Part shown: positions 28,670 to 53,510 of the stretch, one piece after another
Position numbering within the stretch: the stretch's first letter is position 1
Layout: every line of letters begins with the position of its first letter
The notes under the pieces: model-generated
What the model was told of the DNA's origin: nothing
Seen by the model: only the letters and a program-made list of their open reading frames with translations
Database searches by the model: none
From: a virus
Taxonomy: Duplodnaviria; Caudoviricetes
DNA length: 64,000 nt
Virus record (IMG/VR): IMGVR_UViG_2909979649_000004
Strand: one strand, 5' to 3'
Made by a program: the position numbers and the translations under genes

Positions 28670-29263
28670 TCAACAACTTTTTTCAAATAAATAGCAAAAA
28701 AGTTGATGATTCACTTTTTTATCCCAACTATGAAGTTCATCCAAGCATTCTAAATAACGGGCATGCCATGTTTGACACCAACTTTTATAAGTAATACAAC
28801 ATTTTTCGGCGAGTTCTGCTTTAGTAAGTGCTCTTTTTCCATTTGAACATCGACACTTACGTGTAAAGCTTTTATGTTGATATACACCAGTGCCATTGCA
28901 TGTCTGACAAGTGTTCTCAAAAATGACTTCGTTAATCATTTGTCTAGCAAACTGAAGAAAAAAGAACAGTGACTTTTTCTTATCAGTTGGCCACGGTTCA
29001 CGCCACTTTTCATTAATCCCCTTTGTGATAATGAACTGCTGAGTCAATTTATCGAGTTCGTGTATAACTGTCTTATCATTGTTGTACTTTACTAGTCCTA
29101 ATAAATACGCCTCACGTGGTAAGTCTCCCATTCCAAGTGCCGCCGCGACATCTTCAGGGGTTAACGTTGGCATTCCACCAGGTACACCTTCATATTTAAC
29201 CGACTTAGGTGTTAATAAGGTCATTGCACTCATCTTTATATACTCTTCGTCGTTTCGGGTCAT
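28670..29263 (-). CDS. Late antitermination protein Q (lambda-type)
   Basis: LTPEDVAAALGM, CQTCNGTG..CRC..G zinc finger, W..TW..Y; upstream of lysis genes. Confidence 0.85.
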   Translation of the reverse strand: MTRNDEEYIKMSAMTLLTPKSVKYEGVPGGMPTLTPEDVAAALGMGDLPREAYLLGLVKYNNDKTVIHELDKLTQQFIITKGINEKWREPWPTDKKKSLFFFLQFARQMINEVIFENTCQTCNGTGVYQHKSFTRKCRCSNGKRALTKAELAEKCCITYKSWCQTWHARYLECLDELHSWDKKVNHQLFCYLFEKSC

Positions 29264-29657: not shown

Positions 29658-29828
29658 TTACTCTCCACACATACCACACTTGCCACTTTTAAGCCCCTCA
29701 GCCGTTTTTCTCACTGCCAGGGCTAGTTCTCTGCTGCCATGTTCTAAACTGTCTTCTAGCTGCTCTGCGAGCCTCTCAAAGCGTTTTGCCATGGCAATCA
29801 AGTTGGTCGTTCGTTCTTTGCTTTTCAT
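29658..29828 (-). CDS. 56-aa hypothetical protein (not in ORF track)
   Basis: SD GGAG; MKSKERTTNL..KCGMCGE, co-oriented with operon. Confidence 0.6.
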   Translation of the reverse strand: MKSKERTTNLIAMAKRFERLAEQLEDSLEHGSRELALAVRKTAEGLKSGKCGMCGE

Positions 29829-29862
29829 TGTTGTTATTCTCCATTCGTTATTTCGGGTTTTG

Positions 29863-30186: not shown

Positions 30187-32433
30187 TTATTTGTTTTCTG
30201 CGAAGTATGCAGCATGGACCCAAGCGGCTCGTGATCGTCCACGTGTTTTAATGTTGTTACTAAATTGGGCTAAGCCTCTACTCATCAGCGCCTTAAAAAT
30301 GAGGTCTTCTTGTTTAGGGTCAAGTTTTGAAAATGCAGGACTACGACTTATTTCGTATTTTGTTAATCCTTTAGCACCTGCTTTACGAATGATATCTTCA
30401 CATGACTTCAATTCTGTTTCAAATTTTGAACCACCTACTTTTTTGGATACTGTCTCTAGTAATTTAAAATCCAAATAGCGAACATAGTCAATAGCGTATT
30501 TTACTAATTCTTTCTCGATTGTCTTTGCATAGGGATTTTTAGATAAAGCGAGGATTAAACTAATCCGCATGGCCTTTTCACGCGTTCGACCTAATAAGAC
30601 ATCAAGTCCTTGTTGTTCCACTTCTTCTTGTTTAGCTAGTAACTCCTGTTCAAATTCTTTTAACAACATTAATGCATCGGCTTGAAATACTAATACCTTT
30701 TGTTCGACAGTTTCATTAGCGGCTTTTATCTCAGTAATGTTTCCAGCCAGATTACTACGTACTGCTTTTATCCAATTTAAAATACTTTCAGGCACAGGAC
30801 GCACATCAGGATCAATACTTGGTTGTCTGGATAAATGGCTTTCCATTATCAACAGCCGTCCTAAAAAGCCATCACGCACTAACTGTGAATTTAAGTTGTT
30901 GTAAAATGTGCCCGGTGTTGTCATAGCCAATAAGGTTAAAGCTGGGCTACGAATAACACGATTACGCACATCTTCCGCTTGGGATTTACTGAGTGTCATG
31001 GTCGAATACGACGGAGGACGCATGGTACCATCACAACGCCCCCAGCATTCCACCAGTTGAGTAATGGCTTCATCTTTTTGGGTATTATTGGCTTTTTGGC
31101 TGCTTTCAATCAGTTTGCCAAACTCATCAATAATTGAGATATGCACAGGTCGGGTTAACAATTCACTGAATACGGCGCCAGCTGAGGTATAACCACTTCC
31201 TGAAATTAGTTCGCCCAAGTCAGCCGCTTCTAAAATCCGCTCGACAATTTTTTTACCATGTTCTTTACCACTGGAACTTTTAGCAATATTCAAAAAGTAG
31301 AGCGATGAAAAATTATTTTTATTGGTACGATAAAAACGCCCACAGATCACACTCCCCAATGCTAAGGCTGATTGTATAGCTAGCGCCGGTTGTTTTTTAG
31401 TGGCCGTATCATTCATATACTTAACGACTTCCCCTAATACACCCGGCACCTTATATAAATGGTCAGGCAAAGATTCAGGCACAGGCTCGTCTTTAGGTTG
31501 ACTCGCTACAATAGGATAAACTGGCACCACATCATGGGGATGATTTCTAAGATGGGTTGCCACTAAGCTGGCAATACACGTATTTAATTCAGCCTGGCCT
31601 AATGGTGGGTTATTCCCTTTATCCCATTCGTTTAATATCTGCTTAATGGTGTATAAATCCATGCCACCTGCGAGATATTGCCCCACTAAGGAAACAGCCG
31701 ATTTATTTCGTTCACCTTCATTAACTGAATTGCCATCGGCTTTATGATGGTAATAATCAGCCAGGTTAAATCCAATGTTACCGGTCGCAGGCTTAGTCGC
31801 GTCATTAAACTGGTTAATGGTAATTAAGTCTTGCTCAGTTAGGTATGGCAAGTCGTGGATAGAATCAACCGGCCACGTGGGGTCAATTTCCCATTCATAT
31901 TTAGTACCACTGGCATGAGTGGAGCCAGGCGCAACGACATAACCTCCATGGCCACGAAAATCAATTTTTGTTTTGCTATTAACTGAATTTCGAATATCCA
32001 CGCTTTTATTGGGCTGAAAGTAATAGTGTTTCCCTTTAGCGGTTTTTACTTTCCATGGAGTACGACCGACGGCACCTGACTCCATAAATTGAACGGCTTC
32101 TTCAGAGTCGGCGTCCACAACAATCACATTACGCCCCGTCACAATGGCATAATTGGCATAGGGAAATTGATGTGTCCAATTCTCTATTTCTTGATCAGAC
32201 GGCGGTTGCTTCTGGTATTTATGCCAACTGGTGCGTGGTGTTTTAGGCCAACGTTCTTTGGCTTTTTCTAAATCGCCATCACAACGGTCATTAACAAAAT
32301 ACGGTGGTGGTGTATCAAAAGGTGAACCTAATGGAATTAAGGTAAAACCTTGTTCATTCAACTGCCAAGCAATATCCTCAGTGGGTTCGGGTTTTAAATC
32401 TGGCATCATGTTCGACATCCCTGATTTAGGCAT
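30187..32433 (-). CDS. Bifunctional primase-polymerase / PriCT / DUF3987-type helicase
   Basis: N.AIVTG..VVDAD, T.KGKHYYF, DFRG.GGYVVAPGS.H; EGERN; SSSGKE, IDEFG. Confidence 0.88.
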   Translation of the reverse strand: MPKSGMSNMMPDLKPEPTEDIAWQLNEQGFTLIPLGSPFDTPPPYFVNDRCDGDLEKAKERWPKTPRTSWHKYQKQPPSDQEIENWTHQFPYANYAIVTGRNVIVVDADSEEAVQFMESGAVGRTPWKVKTAKGKHYYFQPNKSVDIRNSVNSKTKIDFRGHGGYVVAPGSTHASGTKYEWEIDPTWPVDSIHDLPYLTEQDLITINQFNDATKPATGNIGFNLADYYHHKADGNSVNEGERNKSAVSLVGQYLAGGMDLYTIKQILNEWDKGNNPPLGQAELNTCIASLVATHLRNHPHDVVPVYPIVASQPKDEPVPESLPDHLYKVPGVLGEVVKYMNDTATKKQPALAIQSALALGSVICGRFYRTNKNNFSSLYFLNIAKSSSGKEHGKKIVERILEAADLGELISGSGYTSAGAVFSELLTRPVHISIIDEFGKLIESSQKANNTQKDEAITQLVECWGRCDGTMRPPSYSTMTLSKSQAEDVRNRVIRSPALTLLAMTTPGTFYNNLNSQLVRDGFLGRLLIMESHLSRQPSIDPDVRPVPESILNWIKAVRSNLAGNITEIKAANETVEQKVLVFQADALMLLKEFEQELLAKQEEVEQQGLDVLLGRTREKAMRISLILALSKNPYAKTIEKELVKYAIDYVRYLDFKLLETVSKKVGGSKFETELKSCEDIIRKAGAKGLTKYEISRSPAFSKLDPKQEDLIFKALMSRGLAQFSNNIKTRGRSRAAWVHAAYFAENK

Positions 32434-32494
32434 ACTGGTACTGCTGGATAATCCAATCCAGTACTAATTAGTAAAACAGTCATCTCTAGCAGTA

Positions 32495-32523
32495 GTGACA
32501 TCAAAGACCTACTCAGATATAGT
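32495..32523 (+). promoter_or_regulatory. Promoter of putative small RNA 1
   Basis: GTGACA-N17-TATAGT; matches GTGACG-N17-TAAAGT in prophage 2. Confidence 0.55.
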
Positions 32524-32529
32524 TATTGC

Positions 32530-32645
32530 TCAACCAAGGGATGTGCAGAGCCCAATAGTCGCGAGGCTACTCCTTATACCTCTCCCATCTCCTTTGTTGT
32601 TTCGGGTTTAGCCGGACTTCCCTTGGGAGGTTCCGGCTTTTTATT
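32530..32645 (+). ncRNA. Putative structured antisense RNA 1
   Basis: No ORF; promoter upstream; caaccaagggatg/catctcctttgttg stem; terminator agccgga..tccggct-T run; anti-SD tracts. Confidence 0.5.
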
Positions 32646-32657
32646 ACTATGAGTTAC

Positions 32658-32720
32658 AAGATACACAAAGATTACTAAGTACGTCAATAGTTACGATAAA
32701 GTTTTCTTTTGATTACTTTC
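32658..32720 (-). promoter_or_regulatory. Lytic promoter (pR-like) with repressor operators
   Basis: Minus TTGACG-N18-TATCTT; AAAGATTAC / GATTACTTTC motifs recur at 33277-33310 (GTAATC-AAA-GATTAC dyad). Confidence 0.55.
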
Positions 32721-32753
32721 TACTTCTTTTGAAAGAGATGGTACGCTTACTAT

Positions 32754-33191
32754 ATGAGCGAGAAAAAAAGCGAGCTGAAAGATAGAATTAAATCGGTTAG
32801 AAAGTTCCGGCTTTTCACGCAAGAAGAGCTAGGGCAGAAACTTGGTGTTACAAAGTCAGCTGTTGCCGCCTGGGAAACTGGTAGAAACTCCCCAGCCCCA
32901 TTAATGCTGAAAGAGATTAGTAAGCTCCTAAACTGTTCTTTTGACTGGCTATCGTCAGATGAAAGTGAAATTACTGGTCAATGGGCTGAGCGAATAAAAG
33001 TAGAGCACCCAGATAAAGTAGATAATGAGAACTATGATCGTAACAGAATCATGGAAGATGTAAGCTATGTTGCAACTAATATTACTCGTCTTGGACTTGA
33101 GGATAAACTCACTCAGTCGGATATGAAGTTACTCAAATCAATAATTGATATTATTGAAGAACGAGAAGAAATTAATAATACATCTAAGTAA
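32754..33191 (+). CDS. XRE-family repressor (CI-like, no S24 domain)
   Basis: RIK..R..TQEELG..LGVTKSAV..WE.G..P..WL HTH; divergent from replication operon. Confidence 0.85.
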   Translation: MSEKKSELKDRIKSVRKFRLFTQEELGQKLGVTKSAVAAWETGRNSPAPLMLKEISKLLNCSFDWLSSDESEITGQWAERIKVEHPDKVDNENYDRNRIMEDVSYVATNITRLGLEDKLTQSDMKLLKSIIDIIEEREEINNTSK

Positions 33192-33335
33192 TTAGCCCTT
33201 CTTAATTCACTCCTGTCTCTCCATTCTTATAGATATTTTTAATTAACCCACCTCTTCTAGTAATTTTTTTATACTTGAAAGTAATCAAAGATTACCTAAG
33301 AATACTAAGTACACAGTATTAGTGAGAGTTACTAA

Positions 33336-33725
33336 ATGGACGGTAACGTAATAGCAGAAGGACACTGGCAAGCGCACCTGAACAATCCGCACCTTGCCCC
33401 TCGGGAGACGTTGTACTGCTTCGGTCTCCTAGCGGGTAAGTCAGATAAACAGATTGCCCGCGATTGTGAAGTCTCACCGGGCACAGTGACGCAACGAATT
33501 AAAACCGTACATTACAAGCTACGGACCCATAACCGGGCACATTTAGTGGCTGAGTTAATTCGGCTAAAAGTGGTCACCCCACTATTGATGGTATTAGCCG
33601 CATTAACACTACCTGATTTACCACTATTAACTGCCCAAGACGATGACCCGAATCAACCCCGCCAGGTTCGCATTACTCAACGACCTGTGCGGCGAGCTGA
33701 TGACTTAACGACATTATTAGTATAA
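33336..33725 (+). CDS. LuxR-type HTH protein
   Basis: LAPRE..G.SDKQIAR..VSPGTV..KL..NRAHLVAE. Confidence 0.8.
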   Translation: MDGNVIAEGHWQAHLNNPHLAPRETLYCFGLLAGKSDKQIARDCEVSPGTVTQRIKTVHYKLRTHNRAHLVAELIRLKVVTPLLMVLAALTLPDLPLLTAQDDDPNQPRQVRITQRPVRRADDLTTLLV

Positions 33726-33736
33726 GGAGCCACACA

Positions 33737-35359: not shown

Positions 35360-36112
35360 ATGGCCATTTCATTAGCCAGTATCTCAAAAACCAACGGGAT
35401 TAAGGCTCCACGGATATTGATTTATGGGACTCATGGCATTGGTAAAACCACCTTTGCCGCCGGGGCTCCGAATCCCATATTTTTATTTACCGAAGATGGT
35501 TCCGGTCAATTAGCATTAAATTCATTTCCACTCCTGACGAATTATGTAGAAGTTATTCAAGCTTTAGCGGCTCTATATAATGAACAACACGAATTTCAGA
35601 CCGTGGTGCTTGATTCACTGGATCATTTAGAACCCTTAATTTGGACCCATACGGCCCAGCAATGTAATAAAGACAGTATCGAAGACTTTGGCTATGGCAA
35701 AGGCTATATGGAAGCCTTACGTTATTGGCGTGAAATATTAGGTTGGCTGGATGCGTTACGTAACCAAAAAGGCATGACCTATATTTTAACCGCTCATACC
35801 CATATTAAACGTTTTGATAGTCCTGAAACGGATTCTTATGACCGCTACCAAATTAAGTTAAATGACAAAGCCAGTGGCTTAGTTCAGGAGTCAGTAGACT
35901 GTGTGTTGTTCTGTAATTATCAGGTCAACATTAATAAAGCCGATGTCGGCTTTGGTAAAGAAAAAGCCCGAGGTATTTCCACTGGACAACGGTTGATTCA
36001 TACCGTGGAAAAACCCGCTTACATAGCCAAAAACCGTTTTAACTTACCCGAAAAAATGCCCCTTGCATGGGAGGCATTTACCAATGCACTTAACCCACAA
36101 CCCTCTGTATAA
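35360..36112 (+). CDS. Sak4-like AAA_24 ATPase (single-strand annealing)
   Basis: YGTHGIGKTT, TEDG, VLDSLD.LE, GYGKGY, AKNR. Confidence 0.88.
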   Translation: MAISLASISKTNGIKAPRILIYGTHGIGKTTFAAGAPNPIFLFTEDGSGQLALNSFPLLTNYVEVIQALAALYNEQHEFQTVVLDSLDHLEPLIWTHTAQQCNKDSIEDFGYGKGYMEALRYWREILGWLDALRNQKGMTYILTAHTHIKRFDSPETDSYDRYQIKLNDKASGLVQESVDCVLFCNYQVNINKADVGFGKEKARGISTGQRLIHTVEKPAYIAKNRFNLPEKMPLAWEAFTNALNPQPSV

Positions 36113-36123
36113 GGAGAGTCATC

Positions 36124-37940: not shown

Positions 37941-39562
37941 AACTCCGACCTTATCAGCAGGAAGCGATTCAGGCACTGATTGAATACTTTCATCGTGCCA
38001 CTGGGAATCCGTTAATCTGTATTTCCACTGGTGGCGGTAAGTCGGTGGTGATAGCCGCCTGGTGTCAGTTGGTATTAAACCAATTTCCTAACCAACGAAT
38101 CTTAATACTCAGCCATGTAAAAGAAATCCTGGAGCAGAATTACAGCAAATTAAAAACCCTGGCCCCTGATGTGGATATGGGGATTTATTCGGCTAGCTTA
38201 AAACGCAAAGACAAAGATGCCAGTGTCTTATTTGCCGGTATCCAATCCGTGTATTCCAAAGCGTTTGACTTAGGTCCATTCAATTTAATTATTGTAGATG
38301 AGTGCCACTTAATTAACGCCGATAAAGATACCACTATGTACAGTCAGTTTTTTACCGATGCGAAAAAGATGAATCCCAATATTAAAGTGATTGGGTTTTC
38401 AGCCACACCGTATCGGATGAAATCAGGCTTATTAACTCATGGGGATAATGCTTTATTCCATGAGATTGTTTACGAAACCGATATTCAGCAATTAATTGAT
38501 GATGGCTATTTATCGCCCTTAGTCACCAAAGGTGGCAGGCAGAAAATAGACCTGACTGGCGTACGGACTCAAAATGGCGATTATGCCACCAAGGATATGG
38601 AAAAGGCGGTTAATAAAGATGATTTAACTGATAAAGCCTTGGCTGAAATTATGGAGTTAGGTGCAGACCGAAAAAGCTGGTTAATCTTTGGGGTATCGGT
38701 AAAACACTGTTTGGAAATTGAAGAGAAATTAAAAAAGCAAGGTGTCTCCGTGGGGATCGTCCATGGTAAGACACCTAATAAGTTAAGGGATAGAATTATT
38801 ACTTTGTTCAAACAAGGTAGTATACGTTGTCTAATTTCGCAAGGTGTTTTAACGACGGGATTCGATGCGCCTAGAACGGATTTAATTGCGTTATTACGTT
38901 CGACTAAATCCGCTGGGCTGTATGTGCAGATATTAGGGCGTGGATTACGGATATCACCCGAAACCGGCAAGGCTAATTGTTTAGTGCTGGATTATGGCGG
39001 CAATGTTGAACGCCATGGGCCGATTGATCAAATCAAAGTGAGAAATGCCGGCAAGAAAAAAGAACCGGGTGAAATGCCTATTAAGGAATGCCCCAAATGC
39101 CAGTTATTGATTCCTTGCTTTGAAAAAGAATGCCCAGATTGCGGGTATATTTTTCCCGCACAAGCCCCCCATAAAGCCACGGCCAGTAATAAAGCGGTTT
39201 TGTCTGCTATGCAACAGGCTGAATGGTATCCCGTGGAAGCGGTGTTTTATCAGCTGCATAGTAAGGCGTTTTCGAATAACTCAGTCAAAGTCACTTATCA
39301 ATGTGGCACTGAATTTTTTGATGAGTGGGTTTGTTTTGAGCACACCGGCTTTCCAAAACACCGGGCATTAACCTGGTGGGTGCAACGGGTCGGTTATCAA
39401 CCGCCATGCCCGAATGATTGTGATACGGCATTGGCCTATTTAAATAATAACAAGATCAAAACCCCATCCGCTATTCAGGTTAAACCGGAAGGCAAATACA
39501 AAAAAATAATTAATTACGAGTTTCTACCCGAGACAATAAAGGAAATGGCTTATGGAAATTAA
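37937..39562 (+). CDS. SF2 DExH helicase (RadD/YejH-like) with zinc finger
   Basis: LRPYQ, TGGGKS, DECH, SATP, LTTGFD, Q..GRGLR, CPKC..CPDC. Confidence 0.92.
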   Translation: MKLRPYQQEAIQALIEYFHRATGNPLICISTGGGKSVVIAAWCQLVLNQFPNQRILILSHVKEILEQNYSKLKTLAPDVDMGIYSASLKRKDKDASVLFAGIQSVYSKAFDLGPFNLIIVDECHLINADKDTTMYSQFFTDAKKMNPNIKVIGFSATPYRMKSGLLTHGDNALFHEIVYETDIQQLIDDGYLSPLVTKGGRQKIDLTGVRTQNGDYATKDMEKAVNKDDLTDKALAEIMELGADRKSWLIFGVSVKHCLEIEEKLKKQGVSVGIVHGKTPNKLRDRIITLFKQGSIRCLISQGVLTTGFDAPRTDLIALLRSTKSAGLYVQILGRGLRISPETGKANCLVLDYGGNVERHGPIDQIKVRNAGKKKEPGEMPIKECPKCQLLIPCFEKECPDCGYIFPAQAPHKATASNKAVLSAMQQAEWYPVEAVFYQLHSKAFSNNSVKVTYQCGTEFFDEWVCFEHTGFPKHRALTWWVQRVGYQPPCPNDCDTALAYLNNNKIKTPSAIQVKPEGKYKKIINYEFLPETIKEMAYGN

Positions 39563-39785
39563 CCAGATGTATTTATCAAGAGAAAACAGAAAGGTTGTTG
39601 AGAGAATGAGGGAGTATATTAACTATTATAAGCTAGCCAAAGCAGATGGACGAAAGCCTGAAAGAATACAGTTAGAAATTAAACAATATGAAAGGCTTAG
39701 GAAAAATTTACTAACAAAGACTAACGGTAAATGTAAACCACCTTACACCCTTAACAATATCCCAGTTGTCCCGGTTCAACATTAA
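39552..39785 (+). CDS. Hypothetical protein (homologue of 50014-50232)
   Basis: MEIN.M.L..N..YI.YY.LAK..CKPPYT shared. Confidence 0.75.
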   Translation: MEINQMYLSRENRKVVERMREYINYYKLAKADGRKPERIQLEIKQYERLRKNLLTKTNGKCKPPYTLNNIPVVPVQH

Positions 39786-39794
39786 GGAATCACC

Positions 39795-40100
39795 ATGTTA
39801 GCACTCTCACGAAAATACGGGCAGGCCATTTATATTGGTAATCATATCAGAATTTCATTAGGTGGGTTTAATCGGGAATCGGCCCGAGTAGGACTAGCAA
39901 TCAATGAAAAACTAGAAATTAAGGAGGTGCCTTACGAACGTTATCAAAAGCTAGGTGACGATATTACCTTCTTTATTCGACATAAAGGTGGTCAAGTGTG
40001 TTTTTATTTTGATGCGCCGAGAGATGTCATCATATTACGCAGTGAGCTGGAAGCAAGAAATAAGAAAGTTAAACCCGAAAAATCATTAAATGTTGCTTAA
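39795..40100 (+). CDS. CsrA-like protein with internal duplication
   Basis: MLALSRKYGQAIYIG..; second unit LGDDITF..GGQV..DAPRDV.I.RSEL. Confidence 0.75.
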   Translation: MLALSRKYGQAIYIGNHIRISLGGFNRESARVGLAINEKLEIKEVPYERYQKLGDDITFFIRHKGGQVCFYFDAPRDVIILRSELEARNKKVKPEKSLNVA

Positions 40101-52983: not shown

Positions 52984-53036
52984 GCAAAAATTCTACTTGA
53001 AGTTTACAAAATTCGCTATTACTATGACAATACAAT

Positions 53037-53197
53037 AAAAAAACCGGCACCCTACAATAGAGTACCGGTTAACATGTTAAACCCTTATCAGCACAAACAC
53101 CAGTGCCTGTGGCACCTTTACGCCTAAATTCAGCGGTATATGTGAAAAGGAGACAAAAGCACATACCCTGATAGGTCGATTGTGTTTGTGCTGAATA
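53037..53197 (-). ncRNA. Putative structured antisense RNA 2
   Basis: Promoter GTGACG-N17-TAAAGT (53232-53204); 13-bp closing stem 53088-53100/53182-53194 enclosing hairpins; terminator accgg..ccggt-T run. Confidence 0.62.
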
Positions 53198-53510
53198 GGT
53201 AAAACTTTATCTCAAGTTTTAGTAAGCGTCACTTAACTTAATTCTACTGTTAGTTTATACAGTCACCAACCTAGCAAGGAGCATCCATGATGGTACCTCA
53301 ATGTAAGACTTAGCTAACCCTCTAATACTCTCGTTGTATTTCGAGGGTGTTTTATCAACCAATGACTTATTAATTACTGACTGAATTCAGTGAGCTAAGG
53401 ATTTTTTATGTCTGAAAAAAATAAGGCAGGGTTTCTTGCAGGCAATAAAAAAGCTGCTAACCCCCGCAAAGAGAAAAGCAGCTTTCCTAACCACATTTGG
53501 AGTATTTATT

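Follow-up and report, generated by a model that had tools for sequence, protein, structure and literature searches.

In the prophage studied here, no cro gene lies between the repressor-like gene and the primase gene, raising the question of what stands in its place and on which genes it might act. The prophage is part of the window, the whole 64,000-nt stretch of viral DNA that we analysed, and is organised as two diverging operons separated by a 320-bp gap (32434-32753). The leftward operon comprises the genes for a Prim-Pol/DUF3987 primase, a VRR-NUC protein and a Q-like antiterminator, followed by the late genes. The rightward operon begins with an XRE-type HTH gene, a LuxR-type gene, rdgC, an AAA_24 gene and a DUF669 SSB-like gene, and continues with a nuclease gene, a helicase gene, a 77-aa open reading frame (ORF) and the genes for a CsrA-like protein, an excisionase-like protein and an integrase. 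The XRE-type gene is likely to encode the repressor. No Shine-Dalgarno sequence precedes its ATG (window 32740-32756), and the XRE repressor-like genes of related loci, displayed and read by eye, are likewise without a recognisable one. The 101-aa CsrA-like protein (window 39795-40100) is encoded immediately downstream of the 77-aa ORF and shows two stretches of similarity to the Pfam CsrA family. A search for tRNA and tmRNA genes found none.

The original prediction placed a small-RNA unit in the gap, made up of a promoter, a structured RNA and an intrinsic terminator, and convergent with a lytic promoter at 32687. Each of the elements that it named is found, and a promoter-like site is present at the convergent position (Table 1). 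A Cro-sized ORF was looked for and is absent, the gap holding only ORFs of 32-43 aa. We identify 32495-32642 as a predicted stand-alone small-RNA (sRNA) gene on the plus strand, with a promoter of the sigma-70 type. The fold of the sRNA has an energy of -37.6 kcal/mol, with a z-score of about -2.1 to -2.2 relative to shuffled sequences (stretches of 114-116 nt tested). The long closing stem surrounds a variable apical domain and is followed by a single-stranded linker, which we propose as a toehold on the basis of the modelled fold and which is a possible Hfq site. As in Hfq-type sRNAs, the intrinsic terminator, with its U tail, follows an open A/U-rich stretch.

Table 1. Coordinates of the sRNA gene, its predicted targets and related elements (positions in the window unless a contig is named).
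Feature	Position	Strand	Details
Q-like antitermination protein gene	28670-29263	-	phrog_127, E 1.2e-10
Q-like gene start duplex	29245-29261	-	sRNA nt 63-79; 17 nt: 14 Watson-Crick, 3 G-U; net -17.2 kcal/mol
56-aa ORF duplex	29844-29860	-	sRNA nt 64-80, 17 nt; net -14.6 kcal/mol
Prim-Pol/DUF3987 primase gene	30187-32433	-	heads leftward operon
Imperfect complement in 5' coding part of primase gene	32375-32394	-	sRNA nt 61-80, 20 nt, 2 mismatches
Degenerate LexA-like box, CTAA-N8-ACAG	32464-32479		relatives carry CTGT-N8-ACAG there
sRNA promoter-like site	32495-32523	+	-35 GTGACA, 17-nt spacer, -10 TATAGT; 10/12 positions match
Predicted sRNA, ~113 nt	32530-32642	+	start inferred from -10 hexamer, end at U-run
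Long closing stem around variable apical domain	32531-32599	+	consensus fold; types B, C and D have the same architecture with different sequence
Small apical hairpin, GNRA-type tetraloop	32556-32569	+	GCGA here, GUGA in L003
10-mer CUCCUUAUAC	32570-32579	+	mean unpaired probability 0.73; replaced in L002
Candidate main seed (sRNA nt 56-78)	32585-32607	+	3' strand of closing stem plus linker; invariant in 4/4 A-type copies
Linker with GGGUUUA	32600-32609	+	single-stranded, unpaired probability 0.99; best-conserved sequence in the family
Intrinsic terminator hairpin and U5 tail	32610-32642	+	stem 32610-32638, then T5
Leftward promoter-like site	32687-32658	-	TTGACG-18-TATCTT; 9/12 positions match
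TACTAAGTA, operator-like	32673-32681		only other exact copy in 64 kb at 33303-33311
XRE-type HTH gene	32754-33191	+	145 aa, without S24 peptidase domain
rdgC ribosome-site 10-mer	33720-33729	+	net -5.2 kcal/mol
10-mer at ribosome site of DUF669 SSB-like gene	36107-36116	+	net -6.9 kcal/mol
Best predicted target	39526-39548	+	sRNA nt 56-78; 23 nt: 20 Watson-Crick, 2 G-U, 1 mismatch
77-aa ORF	39552-39785	+	flanked by helicase and CsrA-like genes; sister prophages have homologues at 41-44%
Linker complement upstream of excisionase-like gene	40068-40080	+	sRNA nt 71-83, 13 nt
Paralogous type D unit, ~161 nt	53035-53200	-	prophage 2 of window; GTGACG-17-TAAAGT
C-type repeat-like hairpin, L025/L008	G003:C370:7133-7155
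C-type repeat-like hairpin, L026	G005:C7:142786-142808

Copies and relatives of the sRNA unit

Close copies of the unit, termed type A, occur elsewhere in the same genome (L003, 96% identity) and in a congeneric genome (L004, 95%; L002, 91%). Their similarity sets in shortly before the -35 hexamer and ends at the U-run. The flanks differ on one or both sides: to the left lie primase genes of two unrelated types, and to the right HTH genes encoding 145, 218 and 142 aa. A conserved block set in differing flanks indicates that the unit behaves as an independent gene.

A covariance model built from the four A-type copies recovered weaker relatives, and a search with the LuxR-like protein led to 24 related prophage loci in six genomes of the host's bacterial family. 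Eighteen of the 24 loci, spread over the six genomes, carry the unit immediately upstream of an XRE gene. We grouped the 18 units into type A (4: the window's unit, L003, L004 and L002), type B (3), type C (3) and type D (8). All of them have promoter hexamers of the form [A/G]TGAC[A/G]-17-TAnAnT, separated by spacers of differing sequence, and all share a terminator, an open linker and a closing stem (9-20 bp) around an apical part that varies; the linker motif GGGUUUA is present in types A, B and D. The window's unit occupies the slot characteristic of the family, upstream of an XRE gene that is followed by LuxR-like and rdgC genes. The paralogous type D unit in the window is closed by a stem of 13 bp and also has a terminator, and a LexA-like box precedes its -35 hexamer by 14 nt.

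These units make up what is predicted to be a previously undescribed family of prophage sRNAs. An affinity to c4 or IsrK, which the original prediction had singled out for a check against Rfam, was not borne out: neither family matched between 32300 and 33400, even at E values up to 10. The matches that did appear there were at chance level (among them RsaE and a toxic sRNA, E about 0.3) and arise from a CU-rich stretch plus a terminator; across the whole window, no Rfam family reached its gathering score. An order-level search with the covariance model (R1) returned only ordinary terminators outside the family. Distant blastn against a phage record collection gave no match, and exact and degenerate pattern scans of viral contigs found this genome's own prophages only. 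Pattern scans of genome and metagenome contigs found nothing, and since they also missed a known holder (G002), these blanks say little. A chromosomal origin or a relic of an attachment site was ruled out, as no copies occur outside prophages.

Comparison of the units also revealed the strand of the RNA. In the A-type alignment, all three one-sided changes give G-U pairs on the plus strand, so that pairing is kept only there. A C-G to U-G change in the small hairpin is tolerated on the plus strand only, and the terminator of L002 contains A-U to G-U and C-G to U-G changes that again keep pairing on that strand alone. The D-type alignment shows compensatory changes in 9 of 33 pairs, as well as several conserved G-U pairs in the closing stem. 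The G-U-compatible changes, together with the compensatory pairs of type D, indicate that the RNA is read in the direction of the XRE gene. Two small ORFs in the gap (38 aa on the plus strand, 37 aa on the minus strand) have start codons within promoter hexamers; both lie inside the unit, and their frames are shifted by indels in L004 and L002, so we rejected them as genes. Three GGA motifs occur on the opposite (minus) strand of the unit.

An RNA that starts at 32530 and points towards the XRE gene could also be the 5' leader of the XRE mRNA, with the terminator acting as an attenuator that sets the repressor level and the short RNA arising as a by-product. Consistent with such a leader, the units are co-oriented with the XRE gene and lie 53-111 nt upstream of it (17 units with a placeable start), no other plus-strand promoter-like site precedes 32754, and the displayed XRE genes have no Shine-Dalgarno sequence. 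However, the terminators are strong, with GC-rich stems of 8-13 bp followed by U5-U8, and no alternative antiterminator fold is evident. In the sister unit of the window, a promoter-like site separates the terminator from that unit's XRE gene. Beyond the U-run the A-type copies are no longer similar and have different HTH genes, so that the unit moves alone, and the CRISPR-repeat-mimicking cargo of type C (see below) suits a free RNA. We consider an attenuated leader quite unlikely and continue with the unit as a stand-alone sRNA gene.

The promoter arrangement differs between the types. In types B, C and D, 13 of the 14 units have a LexA-type box (CTG-N10-CAG) at a constant distance of 14 nt upstream of the sRNA -35 hexamer, and the fourteenth (L042) has one mismatch in its LexA-like box. 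Overlapping the box is a leftward promoter, arranged back to back with that of the sRNA (for example, in L038, L039 and L025). With promoters back to back, the sRNA in these 14 relatives is divergent from the lytic promoter and not antisense to its transcript. The lytic/replication operon of the B, C and D loci, whose repressors are without a self-cleavage domain, looks to be under direct SOS control.

In the window, the leftward promoter-like site would instead read through the sRNA gene towards the primase gene, and the sRNA would be fully complementary to the resulting leader of the primase/late operon. The sRNA could thus act as a cis-antisense RNA, as the original prediction also proposed, by transcriptional interference or duplex formation in the manner of P22 Sar or lambda OOP, and such an action could coexist with one in trans. 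The site is the sole minus-strand promoter-like site in the gap and is kept in L002, and on the far side of the sRNA promoter no LexA-box promoter is recognisable in type A. It also carries TACTAAGTA, which occurs elsewhere in exact form only at the rightward promoter-like site, so that one copy lies at each of the two promoter-like sites flanking the XRE gene; these copies are likely operators. By contrast, the 14 relatives have their leftward promoter on the upstream side of that of the sRNA, and type A retains a degenerate box at the position of the relatives' LexA box. The right flanks of L003 and L004 are unrelated, and a scan there finds no leftward promoter. Promoter-like sites are about as common in the sequence as in shuffled versions of it (4 found, 3.2 expected). 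We hold cis-antisense control to be unlikely and favour an RNA that acts in trans.

Complementarity to phage messages

What could such an RNA act on? The original prediction noted that CUCCUUAUAC in the sRNA is the exact complement of GTATAAGGAG at the ribosome-binding sites of both rdgC and the SSB-like gene, and proposed control of these early genes in trans, with the caution that Shine-Dalgarno bias inflates such matches. The exact complementarity is confirmed at both sites, and so is the caution. Within the window, the 10-mer has 3 matches against 0.12 expected; this excess is gone genome-wide, where 18 occurrences compare with about 16 predicted by base composition. A TAA stop codon plus the Shine-Dalgarno sequence GGAG account for seven of the ten bases. 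A perfect 10-mer duplex scores 24, under the mean best score of shuffled sRNAs (27.6; 34 start regions). In L002, the apical segment is replaced by another hairpin, yet the rdgC site is still GTATAAGGAG, and covariation of the apical 10-mer with the rdgC site was looked for and not found. Control through the two 10-mer sites is within chance, weak (-5 to -7 kcal/mol) and without covariation, and we do not retain it. The loops of D-type units match the rdgC site of their own prophage through another 10-mer, as one B-type loop does through a third; for this reason, we keep a weak contact of the sRNA with the rdgC ribosome site as one that it may make.

Targets were scanned by ungapped duplex scoring, which we adopted because duplexfold on the full-length RNA with opening energies gave unrealistic looped duplexes. 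Counts of 9-mers complementary to the linker across prophages proved too noisy and were dropped. The scan points to better target candidates than rdgC and the SSB-like gene, namely the 77-aa ORF, the Q-like antiterminator gene and a 56-aa ORF. What stands of the original reading is a plus-strand sRNA gene in the place of cro, with long complementarity to the phage's own gene starts; the pairing with rdgC and the SSB-like gene is not supported in the form proposed.

The best predicted target covers the Shine-Dalgarno region of the 77-aa ORF (ATG at 39552), with a net energy of -19.1 kcal/mol and a duplex score of 47. None of 200 shuffled sRNAs reached this score (mean best 27.6, sd 3.2). The corresponding site in the sister prophage scores 54, and, that copy aside, the next best site in a scan of the 6.69-Mb genome scores 34. 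Beyond-chance seed complementarity to translation start regions of this kind is a further feature of Hfq-type sRNAs. The sRNA segment and its target site are retained in all four A-type prophages. Neither partner of the 23-nt duplex varies in sequence, so covariation cannot show, and conservation of the target site, which lies in the coding end of the helicase gene, may reflect the helicase protein. Outside the linker, the seed is mostly masked by the closing stem (unpaired probability 0.17).

The linker has further complements at the beginning of the Q-like gene, immediately before the Shine-Dalgarno sequence of the 56-aa ORF (29658-29828), upstream of the excisionase-like gene and, in imperfect form, within the primase gene. 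All five linker-complementary sites are on the sense strand of their genes. Four start regions score at least 28, against 0.6 expected, a number that 1.5% of shuffles attain; the 17-nt sites are not outliers genome-wide. A further module of a 56-aa ORF and a Q-like gene (L060, G000:C1:4404042-4405214) has the same sRNA-complementary sites, and neither a LuxR-like gene nor an sRNA unit was found near it.

The relatives share part of this pattern. No complementarity to the cognate sRNAs is seen in the TIRs of the 77-aa ORF's homologues from B and D prophages, making the strongest target specific to type A. In the same prophages, the Q-like leader is complementary to the cognate linker, and the CUCCUU loop is complementary to this leader over the Shine-Dalgarno sequence, with type D adding a third segment. 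One position of the Q leader and the sRNA covaries among B members (C-G / U-A / U-G). The B and D scores on the Q-like leader are 26-29 against a background of 18-24, barely above it, and C-type units show no pairing with this leader. A conserved Q-directed function is plausible from these complementarities.

The Q-like leader itself (45-60 nt upstream of the ATG; L063-L068) is highly conserved among B and D prophages. It contains a GCTAGAGAGGC element, which is complementary to a conserved segment of the D-type sRNA.

Apical modules and the proposed mechanism

In C-type units, the apical part is a solitary hairpin that corresponds, at 21 (G003) or 22 (G005) of 23 compared bases, to the type I-F CRISPR repeat found in the host that carries them. 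The window's unit has no repeat-like hairpin, and its host genome is without such an array (one 2-mismatch match). The family scaffold appears to be a slot for exchangeable RNA modules, as judged from the sequences of the units.

The hosts of L025/L008 and L026 carry CRISPR arrays with 60-bp spacing. One type I-F array of about 26 repeats (L062, G005:C7:146215-148487) starts some 230 bp past the Q-like gene of the prophage with the repeat-mimicking sRNA, and is either phage-borne or merely adjacent.

Such a scaffold could be a decoy, presenting its apical module to a protein or generally to ribosome-binding sites, as C-type units seem to do for Cas proteins. In the window's copy, the hairpin plus CUCCUUA would then imitate the 3' end of 16S rRNA. 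CUCCUUA does correspond to the last seven bases of the host 16S rRNA, and CUCCUU-type loops recur in types A, B and D; the apical part is exchanged between relatives on a constant scaffold, and the C-type hairpin is that of the hosts' own repeat. However, the motif is lost in L002 and L043, no protein partner is identifiable, and it is the seed and linker, not the apical part, that are invariant in the A-type copies. A decoy scaffold is, on this balance, very improbable.

We return to the trans-acting RNA. With the anatomy of the unit, its conservation as a module, its strand and its complementarities with their statistics established, we infer from these that the sRNA is expressed, and likewise in which direction it acts and whether Hfq or RNase III takes part. 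In our estimation, there is about an even chance that the correct reading is a riboregulator acting in trans on lytic and excision genes of its own phage. The sRNA would be made from the strong, constitutive-looking promoter next to the repressor gene. Its open linker would nucleate pairing, which would extend into the 3' strand of the closing stem. The sRNA would cover the ribosome site of the 77-aa ORF, at the head of the distal block of 77-aa, CsrA-like, excisionase and integrase genes, and also the start regions of the Q-like antiterminator and the 56-aa ORF in the leftward operon. Translation would be held down, and cleavage of the duplex perhaps triggered, with the outcome that leaky transcription is kept from starting late-gene expression or excision.

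A broader reading, which we offer tentatively and hold to be doubtful as a whole, is that Cro has been replaced by a modular RNA cassette. A fixed scaffold would stand beside the gene of a non-cleavable repressor, and its apical module would be exchanged between phages, the options being a loop directed against the Shine-Dalgarno sequence, a hairpin of another kind or an imitation of the host CRISPR repeat. The window's copy would then serve as an RNA co-repressor, silencing the Q antiterminator, the replication genes and the excision block in trans through the linker toehold. The prophages of the family are without Cro, and their repressors are without a self-cleavage domain. If the pairing predictions are true, lysogeny would be guarded twice, with the protein repressor (plus LexA in most relatives) acting on transcription and the RNA acting on translation of the Q and excision genes. 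Phage regulatory RNAs are otherwise known from a handful of model phages, and the family adds one cassette in 18 natural versions, its scaffold clear and its functional parts exchangeable.

Comparison with known regulatory RNAs

The P4 CI and N15 CA RNAs are immunity-region RNAs that silence lytic functions by pairing with transcripts of their own phage. Both, like the P1/P7 c4 RNA, are processed from the same-strand operon transcript that they control. Processing from a target-bearing same-strand transcript is not a feature of the window's unit, which differs from these RNAs in having its own promoter and terminator, kept in 18 relatives, and in lying beside a protein repressor. In the IstR-1/tisB pair of E. 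coli, the target is the mRNA of a neighbouring toxin. The B, C and D relatives resemble this system in that a LexA-box promoter adjoins, back to back, an sRNA promoter of constitutive appearance, a layout that, by analogy, would set a threshold against leaky SOS-controlled expression; the window's A-type unit differs in having a degenerate LexA box only.

The c4 RNA acts from the immunity region, silencing lytic functions via pairing with the phage's own transcripts (PMC12197685). In lambda, the aQ (paQ) and OOP RNAs lower the expression of Q and cII by pairing with the mRNA, and OOP has its own promoter and intrinsic terminator (PMC12197685). The likeness to the window's sRNA lies in pairing with the mRNA of a developmental regulator, which is predicted here. 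The lambda RNAs are, however, encoded in cis, opposite their targets, whereas the Q-like and 77-aa targets in the window are 3-7 kb away and would be bound over 17-23 nt; neither aQ nor OOP is related to the window's sRNA by sequence or in Rfam. The Sar RNA of P22 is a short RNA whose promoter lies inside a leader, convergent with the lytic-side promoter (PMC12197685). This convergent arrangement is putative in the window and absent from the 14 relatives. By sequence, RNA production or proven geometry, the window's unit belongs to none of the aQ/OOP, Sar, c4/CI and IstR-1 systems.

A last likeness concerns the C-type members only. Racr RNA anti-CRISPRs consist of a solitary hairpin that mimics the repeat of the host CRISPR array (PMC10651486), a feature that the window's unit does not share. 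The C-type units are candidate RNA anti-CRISPRs of this kind, and these relatives would place such RNAs within the scaffold of an immunity-region sRNA.
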